Shown one piece after another: positions 7,926 to 23,792 of a stretch of DNA of 64,000 bases. The stretch comes from Escherichia coli (lineage in GTDB: Bacteria; Pseudomonadota; Gammaproteobacteria; Enterobacterales; Enterobacteriaceae), in the NCBI RefSeq assembly GCF_050320075.1, contig NZ_CP190018.1; one strand, written 5' to 3'. The notes beneath the pieces were generated by a model that was not told the DNA's origin, did no database searches, and worked only from the letters and a program-made list of their open reading frames with translations. Numbering within the stretch: position 1 is the first letter of the stretch; every line of letters starts with the position of its first letter. The translations under genes and the position numbers were made by a program.

Positions 7926-8212
7926 GACTTAATCTTCCCCTCCTTCAGCAGTATCGCCTGCGTCCTGATAACGCCTTCGAGGTGGTAAAGTCTGGTGTCT
8001 TTGTTGTCGAGGTTATGGGTGCGTCGGTCGATTTCATCGTGACACGCGCTACAAGCCCATGCGCCGATCAGGTCGTCAGGCTTCATTCCCGTTCCGCAAA
8101 TTCCAGCCATCCGGTAATGTGCCAGAACTGTAGTTTCAGGATTGCCATTGCATATGCCGTAAATACGTACCTGGCATTCTCTGCCGCGCGCTTCTTTGCG
8201 TAGATTAGCCAT
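7922..8212 (-). CDS. YbcO-like DUF1364 protein (Cys-rich, putative nuclease)
   Basis: 96 aa; ARGRECQVRIYGICNGNPETTVLAHYR...CSACHDEIDRRTH resembles DLP12 YbcO. Confidence 0.7.
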   Translation of the reverse strand: MANLRKEARGRECQVRIYGICNGNPETTVLAHYRMAGICGTGMKPDDLIGAWACSACHDEIDRRTHNLDNKDTRLYHLEGVIRTQAILLKEGKIKS

Positions 8213-8934
8213 TAAGCAGCCTCACCTGTTACTTTCAGCATTCCGTTATCGAGCAGCTTTCTGGTCAGCCACTGTTGACCACGCCCGGTGATTTTTGTGG
8301 TGAACGATATCTGTATTCCGTGATTTGTGTTGACCGCTGTTTCTTTCACTGTGAAATAGCCGCGATCCATATATTCCTGCATTGGCACATTGCGCCGGGA
8401 ACCTGAAGCAATAAGGATTTTGTGATCGCGCATCCACGCAAACAGTTTGTTTGGACCAATACCGACAACTTTTGCAAAGTTTCCAATCAAAATTCCGCTG
8501 GCCTCGCCAACGCGATCGGCAAACTCAACTTTAGGTGCGGCAATTGCGAGCTGGTTTTCCAGTTGCATTTTCTGCTCAGCAAGATCAGCAGCAAGGCGCA
8601 ACGCTTCTGGTAGCGTTTTGGGGATATTAACCGCAGCTTCTTCAAGCTCTCGCCAACGGTCAACAAGGCGAGCGGTGAACTCTGGCGACAACTGGGCAAC
8701 AACGACAATACTATCTCGCTTACCTTGTTCGCCTTCGAAGACGTAATGCTCGTACTGAACATTGAACCCTAAGTTATTGATTCTTTCGAAAACCTCAATT
8801 TGAGGAAGCCGGATAACACCATTTTTAGCCAGCGTTTCGATGGTACGCTTCACATTGTCATGACGCTTACCAACCAACTCAGCGATTTCAATGCTTGTCA
8901 TTTTGATGGCATTGCCATTTATTAACTCATTCAT
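8212..8934 (-). CDS. Phage regulatory protein Rha / antirepressor-like (KilA-C type C-terminus)
   Basis: 240 aa; N-terminal Rha-like region and C-terminal antirepressor-like domain by motif recall. Confidence 0.65.
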   Translation of the reverse strand: MNELINGNAIKMTSIEIAELVGKRHDNVKRTIETLAKNGVIRLPQIEVFERINNLGFNVQYEHYVFEGEQGKRDSIVVVAQLSPEFTARLVDRWRELEEAAVNIPKTLPEALRLAADLAEQKMQLENQLAIAAPKVEFADRVGEASGILIGNFAKVVGIGPNKLFAWMRDHKILIASGSRRNVPMQEYMDRGYFTVKETAVNTNHGIQISFTTKITGRGQQWLTRKLLDNGMLKVTGEAA

Positions 8935-10458: not shown

Positions 10459-12339
10459 TTAATACTCCGTCACGTTTTCCTGTCGCCACGCCTCGTCATA
10501 TTCCGATTTCGGCATATTGGCGATGTAGCTATATGGCGATCCTGATTCAAGTTGCAGGAACTGGTGCGATTGCTCGTCAAGGAACAACGGGACACCACCT
10601 TCCCAACCTTCGCCGTTACGTTGCTTTTCAAGCATCAAAACAGATGCCGGAGATGCCAGTAGCTGTTCGTCCTTCTCTGACATCCTTTCACCACTCTGAA
10701 CTCTCTGTAACGCTCTCTCGCGAGCCTTGTTACGCCAGATGATGAAAAGGTTGTCTGTCAGGTCTGTTATCGCTCCAGAGCCTTTTACGTCCATTTTCCC
10801 GGTTGGTTTTTCTTCGCTGTCACCTTTTCGCGAGTGAGTAACGAGAATGACGTGGGAGTTTGTTTTGTTTTTGAAATCGCAAATCGAGTCAACAAACGCC
10901 TTCTGCCCGTTATAGTCATCGTCGCCTATGCCACATTTCATCAGGCTGTCGATGATGAATAACTGGATGCCGTATCGGCGGCGAGCGTAGTCGAATATTT
11001 CGATCAGCCTGTCGGCTTTCGCCGTTCCGGTCAGACCAAACACCCAAAGTCTTTCGTCATAAAATTTAAATGCAGAGTCAATTTCCAGCACTGGCGGCAT
11101 CTTGCAGCACGTCGCCTGACGGGTAAGTCGTTTAAGGAGAATGCCTGGCTTCAGCTCAAGTGACGCGATGCACGTCTTCACACCCTGACGCATTGCCTCA
11201 AGTGCCATATGCCCGACAACCTCCGTTTTTCCGTGACCGTTCACACCATTGACCAGCGTCAACTCGGCCTCACGGAACTGGAATTTATCTGCCAGAGATT
11301 CCCACGGTGGATTAAACAGATACTGCTGCTTGCCGTAGAAAGCGTTGATAGTGTCCTGGTAAAACTCTCGCGCGCTGTAGAGTTCTTCAGGATCGAAGTA
11401 GGATGCCGTGCCGATGTACTGCCAGATTTCATCCTCGGTAACACCGTTCATCAGGCATTCGTTGATGTCTTTGTACGGCAGAGTAACAAGACGGCAACGA
11501 TGTTCACCGAGTCGGCTTGCGATTTCCCTTGCGGCTTCACGACCAACATCATCAACGTCCATCGAGATGAATATTTCCTCAAACCTGTCGAGGTTGTGAT
11601 ACTCAAACTCAATCCACTGTTGCTTAGCGCCTTTCCCGCCACCAAACGGCACGGATAACGCCGAGATGCCGTATTGCGCATAGCTCATACAATCAATTTC
11701 GCCTTCGCAAAGTACAACCGCCCTCACGCCAGCGTCCAGAGCCTGCCATCCGAACAGACAAGGTTCGCAATCACCCTCTGCCATAATGACTTTCTTCCCG
11801 TCCGGGCGCTCAGTGCTGATTCGCTTGACCTGCAACAACTCACCATCGCGTTTGTACGGAAGCACCAGTGCATCAAGTTCTCGTTCTCCATTCCACACCT
11901 TGCCGCTGACAACCTCGTAGCGCTTTACGACTTCTGGCGATATGCCACGCGATTGCAGGTACTCAAGATGGGATTCTGTTCTGGTAACGTAGCGGGCGAT
12001 TTTCTTGCGGTCAGGTCTGGAGAATTTCTTCTCACGTTTGGCATCGAAATGGTGATCGTCATCCTTGATTCCGAGAAAGGCTTTCGCTTCCTGCATAGCC
12101 TGATGCAGGTTAATTCCACGACATGCCATCCACAAATCAAGCATGTCACCGCCGTCTCCCTCAGCGAAATCAGCCCATTTTTTCTTGCCGCTAAGGTTGA
12201 CCTTAAGGCTGTTTCCCTTGTCACCGTTGACGTTACCGGCAACCCACTCATGCCCCTCTTTCTTGCCGTTTGGCAACAGGTGCGGAGCCACCCTGTCAAC
12301 CTGCGCCCAAAGCAGGTCGCTAAGTTCACTTGGCGTCAT
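10459..12339 (-). CDS. Bifunctional DNA primase-helicase (Toprim primase + DnaB-family helicase)
   Basis: 626 aa; Toprim-like CEGEIDCMS, Walker A GVNGHGKTE, Walker B LFIIDSL. Confidence 0.8.
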   Translation of the reverse strand: MTPSELSDLLWAQVDRVAPHLLPNGKKEGHEWVAGNVNGDKGNSLKVNLSGKKKWADFAEGDGGDMLDLWMACRGINLHQAMQEAKAFLGIKDDDHHFDAKREKKFSRPDRKKIARYVTRTESHLEYLQSRGISPEVVKRYEVVSGKVWNGERELDALVLPYKRDGELLQVKRISTERPDGKKVIMAEGDCEPCLFGWQALDAGVRAVVLCEGEIDCMSYAQYGISALSVPFGGGKGAKQQWIEFEYHNLDRFEEIFISMDVDDVGREAAREIASRLGEHRCRLVTLPYKDINECLMNGVTEDEIWQYIGTASYFDPEELYSAREFYQDTINAFYGKQQYLFNPPWESLADKFQFREAELTLVNGVNGHGKTEVVGHMALEAMRQGVKTCIASLELKPGILLKRLTRQATCCKMPPVLEIDSAFKFYDERLWVFGLTGTAKADRLIEIFDYARRRYGIQLFIIDSLMKCGIGDDDYNGQKAFVDSICDFKNKTNSHVILVTHSRKGDSEEKPTGKMDVKGSGAITDLTDNLFIIWRNKARERALQRVQSGERMSEKDEQLLASPASVLMLEKQRNGEGWEGGVPLFLDEQSHQFLQLESGSPYSYIANMPKSEYDEAWRQENVTEY

Positions 12340-12446
12340 GATTCCCTCAGATTGAGATTTTTAAACCAGAAATCGACAAACGAAATACTTAACCAGCCGT
12401 GGTTATAACCAGCGACCAGTAGCGATTTGATTTTTGATTTCATGGT

Positions 12447-13307
12447 TCACCTGTCGAAAAACACGTAGCCAGTTTTCGATACGGTGATTGCGGATGGTGG
12501 TTTGGATTGTGGTTGAATGGTTTCTGGCTTTTCGTCGTTCCAGCGCTGACCGTTCAGGTAGCTCGATGGTAACAACCTGTCGAATCCGAACTGCTTACCA
12601 TTCCTGCATGCGATGTCTTCTGCCAGCATCGTGGCAAACTCGCTTGCCGTACCCCTTGTAGTTTTACGCCATTCCCTGAACTGTGTTCTGAATGCCGAAG
12701 CCGCGTTTTTCTTCCCGGCTTTCCGCATGCCTGCACACCAGAATATTTCCTCGAATGCCTTGTCGGTTTCTTCGTGACGGTCAGGTGATTTTTCACACTC
12801 CGTCCGAACACTTTCGGACATAGTGTTTTTATTATTTCTTTTTTCTTTTGTAATAGTTTCTTTTGTGTGTCCCTGTTTTGGTGACAGCGCTGTCACCGTT
12901 TTGGTGACACTTTTTGTCACCAATGCAGTGACATTATCACCAGAGTAGTGACACCCTTCGATTTGCCATTCCTCGATGTTCTTGTTAGGCCCGATTTGCT
13001 GGCCTTCGCGAAGGATTACCTTCATCGCGATAAGCTCATTCTTGGCCTTGTTTACCTTCTGTCTTGGCAGCCTGGTAATTTGAGCTAACTGACTATCAGA
13101 GATGCGATCCATCTTTTTACCGTAGCCGTATGTTTTACGGCATATGGCGTGGGCAACCTTGCTCTGATTTTTCGTTAAATCTGCGCCGATAAGCTCTTCA
13201 TACAGGGCATTTGCAAGACGGGTATAACCATCTTCAACTTCTGCCACACGACGCTCCACAGGCCGTTGTGAAGACCTTAAATGTGTTACGGTTGCAAGAT
13301 TACTCAT
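12447..13307 (-). CDS. Replication initiator with lambda O-like N-terminal DNA-binding domain
   Basis: 286 aa; position after cII; iteron-like repeats inside its coding region. Confidence 0.7.
12850..12960. repeat. Candidate replication origin: iteron cluster with flanking A+T-rich tract inside the O-like gene
   Basis: Repeated GGTGACAGCGCTGTCACC, GGTGACACTTTTTGTCACC, GTGACATTATCACC, GTGACACCC units; adjacent tract ttattatttcttttttcttttgtaatagtttcttttgtgtg. Confidence 0.5.
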
Positions 13308-13439: not shown

Positions 13440-13521
13440 TTGTCATAATTACTTCTGTGGATTGATCCAGTCTTTCTACATCAGGCCTCGAAGAATTCGC
13501 CGTTCTTCGGGGCTTTTTCTT
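13440..13521 (+). ncRNA. OOP-like antisense RNA candidate overlapping the 3' end of cII
   Basis: Plus-strand hairpin CGAAGAA-TTCGCCG-TTCTTCG followed by GGGCTTTTTCTTTT inside the last codons of minus-strand cII; promoter not confidently placed. Confidence 0.3.
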
Positions 13522-13762
13522 TTGTCAGGTAATCGGCAAGCCGCTTAGTCAATTCAGCCATTTCATCGTCTTCGATTCCGTATTCCAGAACAGCAAGCAT
13601 CATGCTTACCTGCGAGAAGAAACCATTCTTCCATCGGCTTACCTGATATTCAGGAACCCCCATTGCTCGAGCGAATGTCTTCTGCCCCATCAGTGCCAGT
13701 TTGTTCAGCAAGGCTGACTCGATGCGAGCCGCTTTCTTGCTTTTAGTTGCAATAGTACCCAT
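13481..13762 (-). CDS. cII: CII transcriptional activator
   Basis: 93 aa; [14 protein letters not shown]...SRWK...FSMLLAVLEYG matches lambda CII from memory. Confidence 0.85.
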
Positions 13763-13839
13763 AGATAATTTCCTTAATGATTAGATAGAGTTGGCTTCGC
13801 AAAGAAACGCAAAACCATAGAGATTTGTTTCTGGTAATG

Positions 13840-13871
13840 CCCTTTTTCAGGGCTGTGATGTGTAAGAGCTA
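13840..13871 (-). promoter_or_regulatory. nutR (boxA GCTCTTACACA, boxB GCCCTGAAAAAGGGC)
   Basis: Minus-strand boxA/boxB downstream of cro. Confidence 0.7.
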
Positions 13872-13878
13872 GAATGTC

Positions 13879-14094
13879 TTAAGCGGCTTTGCGTTCCGGC
13901 GGGAACACGTCATCAAGACTGACTTTTGCGCCTAACTTGTTTAGGCACTCAACAAGAGCACGGCATGTTTTAAGGTCTGGGAAGCGACGACCAGATTCCC
14001 AATGTCCGATAGCTCCCTGTGTGCATCCAACTGCCTTAGCAAGTGTTGTTTGAGAGATATTCAGTGACTCTCGATATTTTCGTAGGTTGCTCAT
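13879..14094 (-). CDS. cro: Cro-like HTH repressor
   Basis: 71 aa from ATG 14094 (MSNLRKYRESLNISQTTLAKAVGCTQGAIGHWESG...); ORF track extends further upstream to 14265. Confidence 0.8.
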   Translation of the reverse strand: MSNLRKYRESLNISQTTLAKAVGCTQGAIGHWESGRRFPDLKTCRALVECLNKLGAKVSLDDVFPPERKAA

Positions 14095-14205
14095 ATGCCC
14101 TCCATAGTAACCATGAAACAATAATACGATATGTACTTTTAGAATGCAAACAAAAAATACATCTTGTGCGTGGATGATTTTAGTACAGAGCGTAATAATA
14201 AGGGT

Positions 14206-14865
14206 ATGAAAATGAAATGGTATGAACTGGCTAGATCCAGAATGAAAGAGCTCGGCATAACTCAAGAGAAGTTAGCTGAAGAGCTTGGTATGACGCAGGG
14301 TGGAATTGGTCACTGGTTGCGCGGATCTCGTCATCCATCTCTTGACGAGATTGGTGTGGTGTTTAAATACCTTGGTATTGATAACGTCTCATTCAACCAC
14401 GACGGTACATTTTCACCTGTTGGCGAATACTCATCTGCCCCCGTTAAAAAACAATATGAGTACCCTGTTTTTTCTCATGTTCAGGCCGGGATGTTCTCGC
14501 CTGAGCTTAGAACCTTTACCAAAGGTGATGCGGAGAGATGGGTCAGCACAACCAAAAAAGCCAGTGATTGTGCGTTCTGGCTTGAAGTTGAAGGTAATTC
14601 CATGACCGCGCCAACAGGATCCAAGCCAAGCTTTCCTGACGGGATGTTAATTCTCGTTGACCCTGAGCAGGCTGTTGAGCCAGGTGATTTCTGCATAGCC
14701 AGACTTGGTGGTGACGAGTTTACCTTCAAGAAGCTGATCAGGGATAGCGGGCAGGTGTTCCTACAGCCACTAAACCCGCAATATCCAATGATTCCATGCA
14801 ATGATAGCTGTTCCGTAGTAGGGAAAGTTATCGCCAGCCAGTGGCCTGAAGAGACATTTAGTTAA
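14206..14865 (+). CDS. cI: CI repressor (LexA-like S24 autocleaving); lambda-type C-terminal domain with a different N-terminal DNA-binding domain
   Basis: C-terminal [26 protein letters not shown]...[17 protein letters not shown]... near-identical to lambda CI; N-terminal HTH differs; divergent from cro. Confidence 0.9.
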
Positions 14866-14888
14866 CAGCCTCACAACTCTAAAACACA

Positions 14889-14920
14889 CATCAATAACCC
14901 GACCTTAGCGTCGGGTTTTC
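14889..14920 (+). terminator. Terminator-like hairpin after cI
   Basis: CCCGAC-CTTAGC-GTCGGG followed by TTTTCTTTTT. Confidence 0.5.
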
Positions 14921-14990
14921 TTTTTCCAAAATATAAACCCATTAAATACAAAGCGTTATAAAAAACTAATTATATTTAGAACATTTTGTA

Positions 14991-15019
14991 TTGACTCGAT
15001 AAAGTACAAATCGTACTAT
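14991..15019 (+). promoter_or_regulatory. pL-like promoter (-35 TTGACT, 17 bp, -10 TACTAT) overlapping a palindromic operator candidate AGTACAAATCGTACT
   Basis: Hexamers at 14991-14996 and 15014-15019; palindrome 15003-15017; upstream of nutL and N. Confidence 0.45.
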
Positions 15020-15058
15020 TTAGCCATCAGCAGGACGCACTAACCACCATGAAGGTGA

Positions 15059-15089
15059 TGCTCTTAAAAATTTAGCCCTGAAGAAGGGC
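15059..15089 (+). promoter_or_regulatory. nutL (boxA-like GCTCTTAAAAATT, boxB GCCCTGAAGAAGGGC)
   Basis: boxB at 15075-15089 is identical to the remembered lambda nutL boxB. Confidence 0.7.
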
Positions 15090-15199
15090 AGCATTCAAAG
15101 CAGAAAGCTTTGAGTAGCGCGAAATGCAGCTGCAAGACAGCAACCGTGGAGATAAGCATCACGGCGCGTTACTCAAAGCTAACTGACAGGAGAATCCAG

Positions 15200-15526
15200 A
15201 TGAATGCACAAACACGCCGCCGCGAACGTCGCGCAGAGAAACAGGCTCAATGGAAAGCAGCAAATCCCCTGTTGGTTGGGGTAAGCGCAAAACCAGTTAA
15301 CCGCCCAATTCTCTCGCTGAATCGCAAACCGAAATCACGAGTAGAAAGCGCACTGAATCCGATAGACCTTACGGTGCTGGCTGAATACCACGAACAGATT
15401 GAAAGCAACCTGCAACGTATTGAGCGCAAGAATCAGCGCACATGGTACAGCAAGCCACGCAGTGAAATGGGTGTGACTTGTGTTGGTCGCCAGAAAATGA
15501 AATTAGGCAGCAAACCACTTATTTGA
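15200..15526 (+). CDS. N: Antiterminator N (lambda type)
   Basis: From ATG 15200 preceded by AGGAG; arginine-rich motif MNAQTRRRERRAEKQAQWKAAN; ORF track start 15110 is upstream. Confidence 0.9.
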   Translation: MNAQTRRRERRAEKQAQWKAANPLLVGVSAKPVNRPILSLNRKPKSRVESALNPIDLTVLAEYHEQIESNLQRIERKNQRTWYSKPRSEMGVTCVGRQKMKLGSKPLI

Positions 15527-15534
15527 GGTGAGAT

Positions 15535-15786
15535 ATGGAGTTTCATGAAAGTGCGATTTGTGATTTTCGCGCTAACGCAAATTCAGTAAAACCACAGCCA
15601 ATTGCAGTTCTTTTTAAAACAATGGGGGCGTGGGCTGTTTTATGCTTCGCCGCTGACGACACTGACGCAAGAATGGCAATAGGCCAAGAGATGGAGATGG
15701 ACCCGACAAACGATGAATTCATAATTTATGGCGCTCCATCTAATTACTTACTTGATACCTGCAACATTTACAACAAGGCTGCCTGA
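15535..15786 (+). CDS. Small early protein, possibly Ral-like
   Basis: 83 aa with a good RBS (GAGGTGAG); C-terminal NKAA as in lambda Ral; weak similarity only. Confidence 0.4.
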   Translation: MEFHESAICDFRANANSVKPQPIAVLFKTMGAWAVLCFAADDTDARMAIGQEMEMDPTNDEFIIYGAPSNYLLDTCNIYNKAA

Positions 15787-16012
15787 TGGTGGCCTTTATT
15801 TTTGGCATAAACAACAGAATAAACACTGCACTGTGTATTCATTCCAACGAGTGAATACACGGAGCAATGTCGCTCGTAACTAAACAGGAGCCGACTTGTT
15901 CTGATTATTGGAAATCTTCTTTGCCCTCCAGTGTGGGGGCTTTTTTATATGCATACCAATAACGCTTCACTCGAGGCGTTTTCGTTATGCAATCAAACAG
16001 AAGGAGCATCCT

Positions 16013-21532: not shown

Positions 21533-21922
21533 ATGGGCTTCCCTTCTCCTGCGGCGGATTATGCTGAGAGCCGTATTTCTCTTGATCAGCAGATAATTAG
21601 ACATCCTTCAGCGACCTACTTCATGAGGGCAGCTGATAGTCATCATCGTGAGGGAATATTACAGGGTGCATTGCTGGTGGTCGATTCCTCACTTACCCCG
21701 GTTGATGGTTCTCTGCTTGTATGCGCTCTGGATGGGGAATATCGCGTAAAAAGATACCGGAAGTATCCACGTCAGCATCTGGAGGATTTAAGAACCGGTA
21801 AGAAGGAAGCATTGCCAAAGGATGACGATGGATGCACGGGCAGCAATGCCGTGTTTGGTGTGATCACTCACATTATCAACGACGCAAGAAGTGGCGAGTT
21901 TGATGATTGTCCCGTGATGTAG
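21533..21922 (+). CDS. UmuD/HumD-like S24 peptidase (translesion synthesis accessory)
   Basis: 129 aa; UmuD-like sequence; SOS box upstream; no umuC partner in the window. Confidence 0.75.
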   Translation: MGFPSPAADYAESRISLDQQIIRHPSATYFMRAADSHHREGILQGALLVVDSSLTPVDGSLLVCALDGEYRVKRYRKYPRQHLEDLRTGKKEALPKDDDGCTGSNAVFGVITHIINDARSGEFDDCPVM

Positions 21923-22317: not shown

Positions 22318-22665
22318 GTGGAAGAAGAAATCTTCACTCGTGAAGAGGCAGCGTCGTATCTGAAGGTAGACAAAGGCACTATCACGCAGTGGATACGAAG
22401 TGGACGACTTCAGGCCGCAAAGATAAATCCAGATAAACCTAAAAGCCCATATCGCATTTGCAAGTCAGACTGCATTGCGGCGCTTAAGTCTGTGAGACAC
22501 AATAGCGCGGTGAATGCGGTTGATGTGCAGGAGGTTAAAGCATGTCAATCAAACTACGCGGTGGCACGTGGCACTGCGATTTCGTCGCGCCAGATGGATC
22601 AAGAGTTAGACGCTCTCTTGAAACATCGGACAAAAGGCAAGCGCAAGAACTTCACGATCGTCTGA
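22318..22665 (+). CDS. xis: Excisionase (Xis), P22-like; 3' end uncertain
   Basis: Immediately upstream of int; ORF overlaps the int start by about 120 nt. Confidence 0.55.
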   Translation: MEEEIFTREEAASYLKVDKGTITQWIRSGRLQAAKINPDKPKSPYRICKSDCIAALKSVRHNSAVNAVDVQEVKACQSNYAVARGTAISSRQMDQELDALLKHRTKGKRKNFTIV

Positions 22666-23702
22666 AAGCAGAAGCGTGGAGAGTAAAAAATCTCGGGGAA
22701 TCACCGAAAAAGCTATTCAAGGAAGCCTGCATACGGTGGCTGCGTGAGAAATCGGATAAGAAGTCCATTGATGATGACAAGAGCATTATATCGTTCTGGA
22801 TGTTGCACTTCAGAGAAGCCATTCTCTCTGACATAACAACAGAAAAAATAATGGAGGCGGTAGATGGGATGGAAAACCGCCGCCATCGCCTGAACTGGGA
22901 GATGAGCCGGGACAGGTGTTTGCGACTTGGCAATCCGGTGCCGGAGTATAAACCAAAGCTTGCAAGCAAAGGAACGAAGACGAGGCATCTGGCAATACTT
23001 CGCGCCATTCTCAATATGGCTGTTGAATGGGGATGGCTTGACAGGGCACCCAAAATATCAACACCACGCGTTAAGAATGGACGCATCAGATGGCTTACAG
23101 AGGAGGAATCGAAGCGCCTGTTTGCAGAAATTGCTCCTCACTTCTTCCCTGTGGTCATGTTTGCAATCACGACAGGCCTTCGCCGTTCCAACGTTACAGA
23201 CCTTGAGTGGTCACAGGTCGATCTGGATAAGAAAATGGCATGGATACACCCTGATGAAACAAAAGCTGGCAATGCGATCGGAGTTCCTCTTAACGAAACC
23301 GCATGCCAGATATTAAGAAAACAGCAGGGGCTCCATAAGAGATGGGTATTTGTCCACACCAAACCTGCCTACCGAAGCGACGGAACAAAAACAGCAGCGG
23401 TAAGGAAGATGAGAACCGACAGCAACAAGGCATGGAAGGGAGCGTTAAAGCGGGCAGGCATTAGTAACTTCCGCTTCCATGATCTGAGGCATACCTGGGC
23501 AAGCTGGCTGGTTCAGTCCGGTGTCTCTCTTCTTGCACTTAAAGAGATGGGAGGATGGGAAACTCTCGAAATGGTTCAAAGATACGCCCACCTTTCAGCC
23601 GGGCATCTCACCGAGCACGCAAGCAAAATCGATGCGATTATAAGTCGCAATGGCACAAATACGGCACAAGAGGAGAACGTGGTGTATTTAAATATGGGGT
23701 AA
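22542..23702 (+). CDS. int: Tyrosine integrase, P22-type, thrW-specific
   Basis: 386 aa; aligns from the N-terminus with remembered P22 Int; catalytic HDLRHTWASWLVQ...YAHL motif; adjacent to tRNA-Thr. Confidence 0.9.
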   Translation: MSIKLRGGTWHCDFVAPDGSRVRRSLETSDKRQAQELHDRLKAEAWRVKNLGESPKKLFKEACIRWLREKSDKKSIDDDKSIISFWMLHFREAILSDITTEKIMEAVDGMENRRHRLNWEMSRDRCLRLGNPVPEYKPKLASKGTKTRHLAILRAILNMAVEWGWLDRAPKISTPRVKNGRIRWLTEEESKRLFAEIAPHFFPVVMFAITTGLRRSNVTDLEWSQVDLDKKMAWIHPDETKAGNAIGVPLNETACQILRKQQGLHKRWVFVHTKPAYRSDGTKTAAVRKMRTDSNKAWKGALKRAGISNFRFHDLRHTWASWLVQSGVSLLALKEMGGWETLEMVQRYAHLSAGHLTEHASKIDAIISRNGTNTAQEENVVYLNMG

Positions 23703-23716
23703 CTACTTGATTTAAA

Positions 23717-23792
23717 TGGTGCCGATAATAGGAGTCGAACCTACGACCTTCGCATTACGAATGCGCTGCTCTACCAACTGAGCTATATCGGC
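23717..23792 (-). tRNA. thrW: tRNA-Thr (anticodon CGU)
   Basis: 76-nt minus-strand sequence GCCGATATAGCTCAGTTGGTAGAGCAGCGCATTCGTAATGCG...CGGCACCA with cloverleaf. Confidence 0.95.

Follow-up and report, generated by a model that had tools for sequence, protein, structure and literature searches.

A lambdoid immunity region probably of the VT2-Sakai type, with lambda-type N and nut sites, in a P22-like prophage of Escherichia coli

Among lambdoid phages, lambda-like C-terminal protease domains occur in repressors with differing N-terminal domains, and the N-terminal domains of the phage L, VT2-Sa and Nil2 repressors have been grouped together in work that takes at least 92% identity to predict the same repressor specificity and that proposes WTACRAWWTGTAT as an operator of the related phage epsilon34 (PMC2629481). 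The database records for the Stx2 phage VT2-Sakai (Sp5; AP000422 / NC_000902) and for the Stx1 phage of Escherichia coli O157:H7 Morioka V526 (AP005153) each carry three putative rightward operators (OR) and three putative leftward operators (OL), together with the promoters pR, pRM and pL. The annotated sequences serve as the VT2-Sakai operators in PMC9803871 and in PMC10742460, whose Table S1 gives VT2-Sakai OR1-3 as the reverse complements of the annotated sites, and OR1-3 and OL1-3 have been predicted in Sakai-type phages (PMC4587872). Here we describe an immunity region, comprising cro, cI, their operators and the flanking antitermination functions, in a 64,000-nucleotide stretch of an E. 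coli chromosome (contig NZ_CP190018.1 of assembly GCF_050320075.1), the whole of which is called the window below. We consider it very likely that this region is the immunity switch of a P22-like lambdoid prophage integrated at thrW, and that its immunity is of the VT2-Sakai (Sp5)/Nil2 type.

Repressor, Cro and immunity type

Positions 13879-15526 hold a complete lambdoid immunity region: cro on the minus strand, three OR sites, cI on the plus strand, a terminator, three OL sites at pL, a lambda-type nutL and a lambda-type N gene (Table 1). In this orientation the "leftward" direction of lambda is the plus strand. The anatomy of the region, its domain composition and catalytic residues, its homologies, the clustering of its sites, their overlap with promoters and their conservation are direct results of the analysis.

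The CI repressor changes character abruptly along its length. Residues 84-219 are 97.8% identical to lambda CI (3 substitutions), and the DNA from nucleotide 14455 (codon 84) to 14859 is 93% identical to lambda cI. Residues 1-83, which include an HTH_3 domain (helix-turn-helix, HTH; residues 11-58, Pfam, E=8e-11), are only 20.5% identical to lambda CI. The alignments support a domain hybrid, with a joint in the linker at residue 83/84, in which an HTH_3 domain other than lambda's is followed by a lambda-type S24 self-cleaving and oligomerising domain. Residues A94-G95, S132 and K175 align with A111-G112, S149 and K192 of lambda and are invariant in the alignment, while solved lambda CI structures match the protein at E=2e-96. 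Judged by its sequence, CI thus has what characterises the LexA/lambda-CI family of self-cleaving repressors, namely an N-terminal HTH domain and a C-terminal S24 domain with a Ser/Lys dyad and an Ala-Gly site for cleavage. As its C-terminal domain is all but that of lambda, CI should dimerise, cooperate and cleave itself, and the 98% identity suggests that autocleavage would be stimulated by RecA on SOS induction. The same origin of the domain makes mixed oligomers with other repressors that have a lambda-type C-terminal domain conceivable.

Cro, like the N-terminal part of CI, is not lambda's, as a sequence-only reading of this region had proposed for both. Lambda Cro and the Cro of the window gave no BLASTP alignment at E<=100. 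Against residues 10-71 of its own CI, however, the window Cro is 35% identical over 62 residues (E=4e-13), with the shared motif TQG-IGHW, the recognition helices reading TQGGIGHW in CI and TQGAIGHW in Cro. By this comparison Cro is a paralogue of the DNA-binding domain of CI with nearly the same recognition helix and, since the two are paralogues of this kind, both should read the same sites. In being such a paralogue it is like 434 Cro, which has been described as a gene displacement by part of cI (PMC6649833). The solved structures nearest to Cro are an 82-residue "lambda repressor-like protein" (28tn) and the N-terminal domain of P22 C2, so that an all-helical protein of the 434/P22-repressor kind would be expected rather than the lambda-Cro fold. 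PDB entry 28tn matched Cro (searched with window positions 13882-14094) at E=1e-16 over 70 residues, and may be the structure of a closely related Cro-type protein. The Cro of phi1720a-02, for which a "bully phage" preprint describes Arg32 as a key residue and a control region of 98 bp, was considered as a counterpart and set aside, as it differs from the Cro here, which has Trp32 and a control region of about 111 bp.

The close relatives are phages of the VT2-Sakai group. CI is 96% identical overall to that of VT2-Sakai (96-97% across the type), 96.4% identical over residues 1-83, and identical in 24 of 24 residues of the HTH region, 17-40; Cro is 97% identical to VT2-Sakai Cro and has the same recognition helix. 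As DNA, the block from cro through OR to cI (13879-14865) is 92.5% identical to the Stx1 phage of Morioka V526 and 93-94% identical to VT2-Sakai, Stx2 phage II, Nil2, 2851, 1717, YYZ-2008 and the PA-series Stx2a phages. The three OR and three OL putative operators and the pR, pRM and pL of AP000422 and AP005153 correspond one for one with those of the window, and the features labelled 'putative major rightward promoter', 'putative maintenance promoter for cI' and 'putative major leftward promoter' in AP000422 match the positions of pR, pRM and pL here. With a DNA-binding domain above the 92% level and an identical helix, a Cro of the same type and all six operators in place, the region falls by sequence within the VT2-Sakai/Nil2 type.

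The region could instead have a specificity of its own, related but heteroimmune to VT2-Sakai. Its DNA is only 92.5-93.6% identical to that of VT2-Sakai, against 99% for the group of phages Dewey, Louie and 683R2; OR2 ends ...GTGCGT here and ...GTGCAT in Sakai, and OL3 has GTTAT where Sakai has GTTGT; and the CI N-terminal domain carries three substitutions (D47S, E48D, V61I). We regard a separate specificity as highly unlikely nevertheless. The HTH region and the recognition helix of Cro are unchanged, nearly every operator difference falls within the 5-bp spacer or at an outermost base and not in the (A/G)TAC and GTA cores, and the identity threshold of PMC2629481 predicts the same specificity.

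Assignment to the VT2-Sakai type also settles the matter of novelty. The sequence-only reading had allowed that its case for a new type would fall if the CI N-terminal domain and the operators turned out to be those of a characterised one, and this is what is found, with CI residues 1-83 at 96% identity to VT2-Sakai and operators that match AP000422 and AP005153. Sequences and annotation of this immunity type date from 1999-2003, and databases contain many examples of it. The exact composite is not new either: cro, OR, cI, OL, lambda nutL and lambda N together are 98-100% identical in phages Dewey (PQ850600), Louie (PQ850616), vB_EcoP-683R2 and vB_EcoP-720R6 and in prophages, and the composite module occurs, at no less than 80% query coverage, in 203 of 5426 complete E. 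coli genomes.

Operator candidates at OR and OL

Six 17-bp sites of the form A(A/G)TAC-N5-GTA(C/T)T overlap pR, pRM and pL. The sequence-only reading had pointed to palindromes built on AGTAC/GTACT as operators, naming only some of them, and had called for a search for repeated sites; that search returns six, clustered in OR and OL to a degree well beyond chance. The one example it gave, AGTACAAATCGTACT, lies at 15003-15017, where it overlaps the pL -10 element and begins 6 bp downstream of the -35. From centre to centre, neighbouring sites are 33 and 26 bp apart in OR and 25 and 33 bp apart in OL, and OL1 and OR1 are separated by 880 bp.

Such palindromes might be incidental in AT-rich promoter DNA, the true operators being other sequences. 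The control regions are 67-68% A+T, and when 3 mismatches to AGTAC-N5-GTACT are allowed there is no enrichment across the window (154 matches against 135 +/- 12). At up to 2 mismatches, the window has 20 matches against 12.1 +/- 3.2 in shuffled sequence. Each of 100 shuffles gave fewer than 20, and the two control regions, each about 100 bp long, account for four of the matches. At up to 1 mismatch, the 64 kb contain five, three of them in OR or OL. A weight matrix was also built, for which we used only the annotated operators of the Morioka V526 Stx1 phage (AP005153), six sequences that VT2-Sakai shares. Across the whole window it scores OL1, OR1, OL2, OL3 and OR3 highest (15.9-22.0), and the next hit elsewhere scores 11.7. 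Three or more matches to a loose pattern within 95 bp occur at three places in the 64 kb: OR, OL and a coding stretch near 54.9 kb. The last, at the end of a coding region and without a palindrome, was treated as chance. A possible fourth site between OR1 and OR2 (TAGAATGCAAACAAAAA) was rejected on reading the sequence, being without the GT of the right half.

The Salmonella phage ST64T, which has the same repressor as phage L (100% identity; PMC2629481), bears on the same point. The cro-OR-c2 DNA of ST64T is only 64% identical to the window, yet each of the three OR and three OL positions is again occupied by an ATAC/GTAC-N5-GTA site, similarly spaced, in the midst of divergent spacers and flanks. 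OR2 is kept as ATAC-N5-GTG/GTA in Dewey, VT2-Sakai and ST64T. Because half-sites have been retained while their surroundings diverged, there is good comparative evidence that the six sites function as operators. No other repeated motif is common to OR and OL. Lambda operators are absent from OR and OL, where the best match (10 of 17) is no better than in shuffled sequence. The concentration of the best matches in two short stretches, their matching positions on three promoters and the retained half-sites make incidental palindromes an extremely unlikely explanation, and support the six sites as the operator candidates of this immunity type. Because neither Cro nor the operators are lambda's, the prophage is expected to be heteroimmune to lambda, which was the prediction of the sequence-only reading and is supported here from sequence.

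Lambda biology, together with the near identity of the C-terminal domain, provides a framework for how the switch would work, including binding, filling order, cooperativity, looping and transcription starts. CI dimers would bind the six pseudo-palindromes through the HTH_3 domain. At OR1 and at OL1/OL2 they would cover core elements of pR and pL, which would turn off lytic transcription. OR2, the weakest site, lies at about -43 from the start of cI, which is where lambda CI binds to activate pRM; its filling is probably cooperative, and pRM would be activated as a result. Occupation of OR3, over the pRM -10, would give negative autoregulation and, by Cro, a shut-off of cI, with Cro predicted to bind the same sites as CI through TQGAIGHW. 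The lambda-like C-terminal domain would provide dimerisation, pairwise cooperativity and RecA-stimulated self-cleavage at Ala94-Gly95 by Ser132/Lys175, and looping between OL and OR, 880 bp apart, is possible. The cI message would be leaderless as in lambda, since the pRM -10 places the predicted start at or near the ATG at 14206.

Several points weigh against this account of the operators and promoters. OR2 is a poor match to the consensus, with a weight-matrix score of 8.9 and rank 15 in the window. The OR1-OR2 spacing of 33 bp, compared with 24 bp in lambda, means that cooperativity between OR1 and OR2 in the lambda style is not assured. In the database records the operator features are labelled 'putative'. 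Experiments on binding of cognate CI or Cro at the six sites were not found in the searchable literature, a circumstance that would also fit incidental palindromes, and the gel-shift data that were found are confined to lambda CI, whose binding at micromolar concentrations was weak. For pRM the -35 is a weak one, and the starts from pRM, pR and pL are predicted positions. The start of cI itself is at 14206 or 14212, PGAP and AP000422 using the second ATG and AP005153 an upstream GTG.

N, nut sites and the prophage

The sequence-only reading had described the CI dimerisation and autocleavage domain, N, nutL boxB and nutR as lambda-like, and the alignments agree. N is 90% identical to lambda N, with residues 3-60 identical; the boxB elements of nutL and nutR are both identical to lambda's, and boxA is one base off lambda in each nut site. 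With the arginine-rich motif of lambda in N and identical boxB, the prophage would have lambda N/nut antitermination specificity. The cro-OR-cI-OL cassette is flanked by lambda-type nutR, nutL and N, so that antitermination specificity would be that of lambda and immunity that of VT2-Sakai. Homology to lambda DNA starts at 14455, in the inter-domain linker, and again at 15025 (about pL +1), from where it runs through nutL and N at 95.5% identity. The immunity region is thus a clean case of lambdoid mosaicism, its joints lying in the linker between the CI domains and at pL +1. The sequence CATCAGCAGGACGC, which closely follows the pL -10, is common to lambda, VT2-Sakai and ST64T; it may be a conserved recombination linker.

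Table 1. Features of the immunity region, with coordinates in the window.
Feature	Position	Strand	Details
cII-type establishment activator	13481..13762	-	93 aa; Pfam Phage_CII E=4e-30; PGAP 'CII family regulator' in an identical genome
Candidate pRE	13737..13769	+	TTGC-N6-TTGC (13737-13750), 13 bp, -10 GATAAT (13764-13769); read from sequence
nutR	13839..13870	-	boxA AGCTCTTAC 13862-13870; boxB GCCCTGAAAAAGGGC 13839-13853; alignment with lambda nutR
cro	13879..14094	-	71 aa; Pfam HTH_3 E=1.4e-12
cro-cI intergenic control region	14095-14205		111 bp
pR	14121..14150	-	-35 TTTGCA (14150-14145), 18-bp spacer, -10 TATTAT (14126-14121); promoter scan
Candidate OR1	14122..14138		TAATACGATATGTACTT; covers pR -10 and spacer; homologous to putative operator in AP000422 and AP005153
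Candidate OR2	14155..14171		AAATACATCTTGTGCGT; weakest match; centre about -43 from cI ATG; abuts pRM -35
Candidate pRM	14171..14199	+	weak -35 TGGATG (14171-76), -10 AATAAT (14194-99); read from sequence
Candidate OR3	14181..14197		TAGTACAGAGCGTAATA; overlaps pRM -10
cI	14206..14865	+	219 aa (217 aa from ATG at 14212); Pfam Peptidase_S24 E=9e-29; HTH_3 E=8e-11
Intrinsic terminator after cI	14896..14927	+	8-bp stem, then T-run; terminator scan
pL with its operators	14944-15019
Candidate OL3	14944..14960		AAATACAAAGCGTTATA; homologous to annotated operator in AP000422 and AP005153
Candidate OL2	14977..14993		TAGAACATTTTGTATTG; overlaps pL -35
pL	14991..15019	+	-35 TTGACT (14991-96), 17-bp spacer, -10 TACTAT (15014-19); promoter scan
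Candidate OL1	15002..15018		AAGTACAAATCGTACTA; perfect AGTAC-N5-GTACT palindrome between pL -35 and -10, overlaps -10
nutL	15059..15089	+	boxA TGCTCTTAA 15059-67; boxB GCCCTGAAGAAGGGC 15075-89; alignment with lambda
N antiterminator, lambda type	15200..15526	+	108 aa; Pfam N36 E=1.7e-25

The candidate pRE lies within the 5' end of cII and is directed toward cI, and the VT2-Sakai record (AP000422) places a 'CII protein binding site' and a promoter within the 5' end of the cII of that phage. The TTGC-N6-TTGC repeat and GATAAT fit a role as pRE, a function we infer from sequence. Between cI and OL, 78 bp (14866-14943) contain the intrinsic terminator only, with no rex-like or other genes. A Rfam scan of the whole window gave a tRNA at 23720-23792 as its sole match, and the immunity region contains no RNA family.

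The prophage that carries the region is P22-like and lambdoid and is integrated in the E. coli chromosome at tRNA-Thr (thrW) next to proA. Positions 13879-15200 are 100% identical in three RefSeq genomes. In one identical genome PGAP annotates, in order, portal, terminase, lysis genes, Q, the nin region, a toprim primase/helicase, an O-like initiator, cII, an HTH regulator (cro), a LexA-family protein (cI), N, erf, abc, integrase and tRNA-Thr. The part of the prophage covered by the window contains no stx gene. The thrW gene (23720-23792, minus strand) stands directly after the integrase gene and is followed by proA/proB; this is the prophage attachment site, and P22-like phages use the same one.

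It is very improbable that the prophage is in decay and the module a remnant without function. Nothing specific speaks for decay, beyond two small pseudogene fragments annotated elsewhere in the early-left region of an identical genome. Against it, the genes cro, cI, cII and N are intact, as is every one of the regulatory sites, the replication, nin, Q, lysis, terminase, portal and integrase genes stand in order, and the module is 99% identical in Dewey, Louie, 683R2 and 720R6, all of which were isolated as phages.

Other genes of the prophage were noted in passing. The nin region includes a gene for a KilAC-domain antirepressor (window about 8212-8934, minus strand; 8334-9056 in L006), which could be a second way to inactivate the repressor. 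The replication module (10459-13307, minus strand) encodes a lambda-O-like initiator (286 aa, Pfam Phage_rep_O) and a 626-aa toprim primase/helicase fusion, the latter in place of a lambda-P-type loader; phage Dewey, with the same immunity module, has another replication set, consisting of an initiator and a DnaC-like loader. Right after N is an 83-aa open reading frame (ORF; 15535-15786, plus strand) with no Pfam match, and the DNA after N (15474-15948) has a 98% identical homologue after N in the Stx1 phage of strain Morioka. Toward the end of the prophage, a 129-aa UmuD-like ORF (21533-21922, plus strand; PGAP 'S24 family peptidase') immediately precedes a small HTH ORF (22318-22665) and the integrase gene (22542-23702). 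It lacks an HTH domain and has ADSH instead of GDSM around the expected catalytic Ser.

Consequences and comparison with known immunity systems

The outcome of the analysis is that the immunity specificity of this prophage can be named (VT2-Sakai type, with lambda N/nut) and that its operators, promoters and nut sites have exact coordinates. As a discovery this carries little weight, the immunity type being ordinary and known. The immunity type is, however, that of a major Stx2a phage, and it is also in circulation in prophages with no stx in the sequenced part, in about 4% of complete E. coli genomes. Full homoimmunity of the window prophage with Stx2a phages of the Sp5/VT2-Sakai type, such that carriers of the module could resist conversion and damp Stx2 induction, is a tentative proposal to which we give somewhat less than even weight. 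If it is true, the roughly 4% of E. coli genomes with the module could resist lysogenic conversion by VT2-Sakai-type toxin phages, and in co-lysogens the module could supply repressor in trans and so damp Stx2 induction. The wider point is epidemiological only: the ease with which strains are converted by toxin phages could be affected.

Of the described systems, VT2-Sakai (likewise the Stx1 phage and Stx2 phage II of O157:H7 Morioka V526, AP005153/4) shares with the window the lambda-type CI C-terminal domain, the operator positions, the half-sites and the promoters. VT2-Sakai differs in the stretch from cI to OL, which holds about 1.5 kb of additional ORFs there and the terminator only in the window, and in its other nut sites, nutR included, and non-lambda N (933W/H-19B-like according to AP000422, HK97-like according to AP005153). 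The host phages also differ, one P22-like and the other an Stx2 phage, and the immunity regions have diverged by about 7% at the DNA level. The Dewey group is set apart from the window by a few point differences, such as GTACAT in the right half of Dewey OR2, and by different neighbouring cII and replication modules.

The Salmonella phages L/ST64T (c2/cro) and epsilon34 belong to the same family of repressor DNA-binding domain and Cro, with the recognition helix TQGAIGHW/Y, and L/ST64T operators have (A/G)TAC-N5-GTA half-sites as in the window, three at OR and three at OL. The identities, however, are 48% in the N-terminal domain, 75% in the HTH region and 70% in Cro (ST64T), and the C-terminal domain is not of the lambda type (45%). 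At these values, well short of 92% in repressor and Cro, sequence does not place the window in the L/ST64T immunity type, although the like half-sites leave room for partial cross-recognition.

Lambda itself and the window have in common the overall architecture, the CI C-terminal domain (98%), N (90%), boxB and an establishment circuit of the cII/pRE type. They differ in the CI N-terminal domain (20%), in Cro, which is unrelated in sequence and in the window belongs to HTH_3, and in the operators, so that on sequence the region is not of the imm lambda type with its TATCACCGC-type half-sites. Lambda carries rexAB between cI and OL and the window does not; OL and OR are 880 bp apart in the window and about 2.4 kb apart in lambda, and the OR spacings are 33/26 bp as against 24/23 bp. 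The lambda imm434 hybrids made in the laboratory place an immunity cassette of one specificity in a lambda N/nut background. The window region has a comparable composition, but is natural, has another specificity, and has its joint inside cI, at the domain linker.

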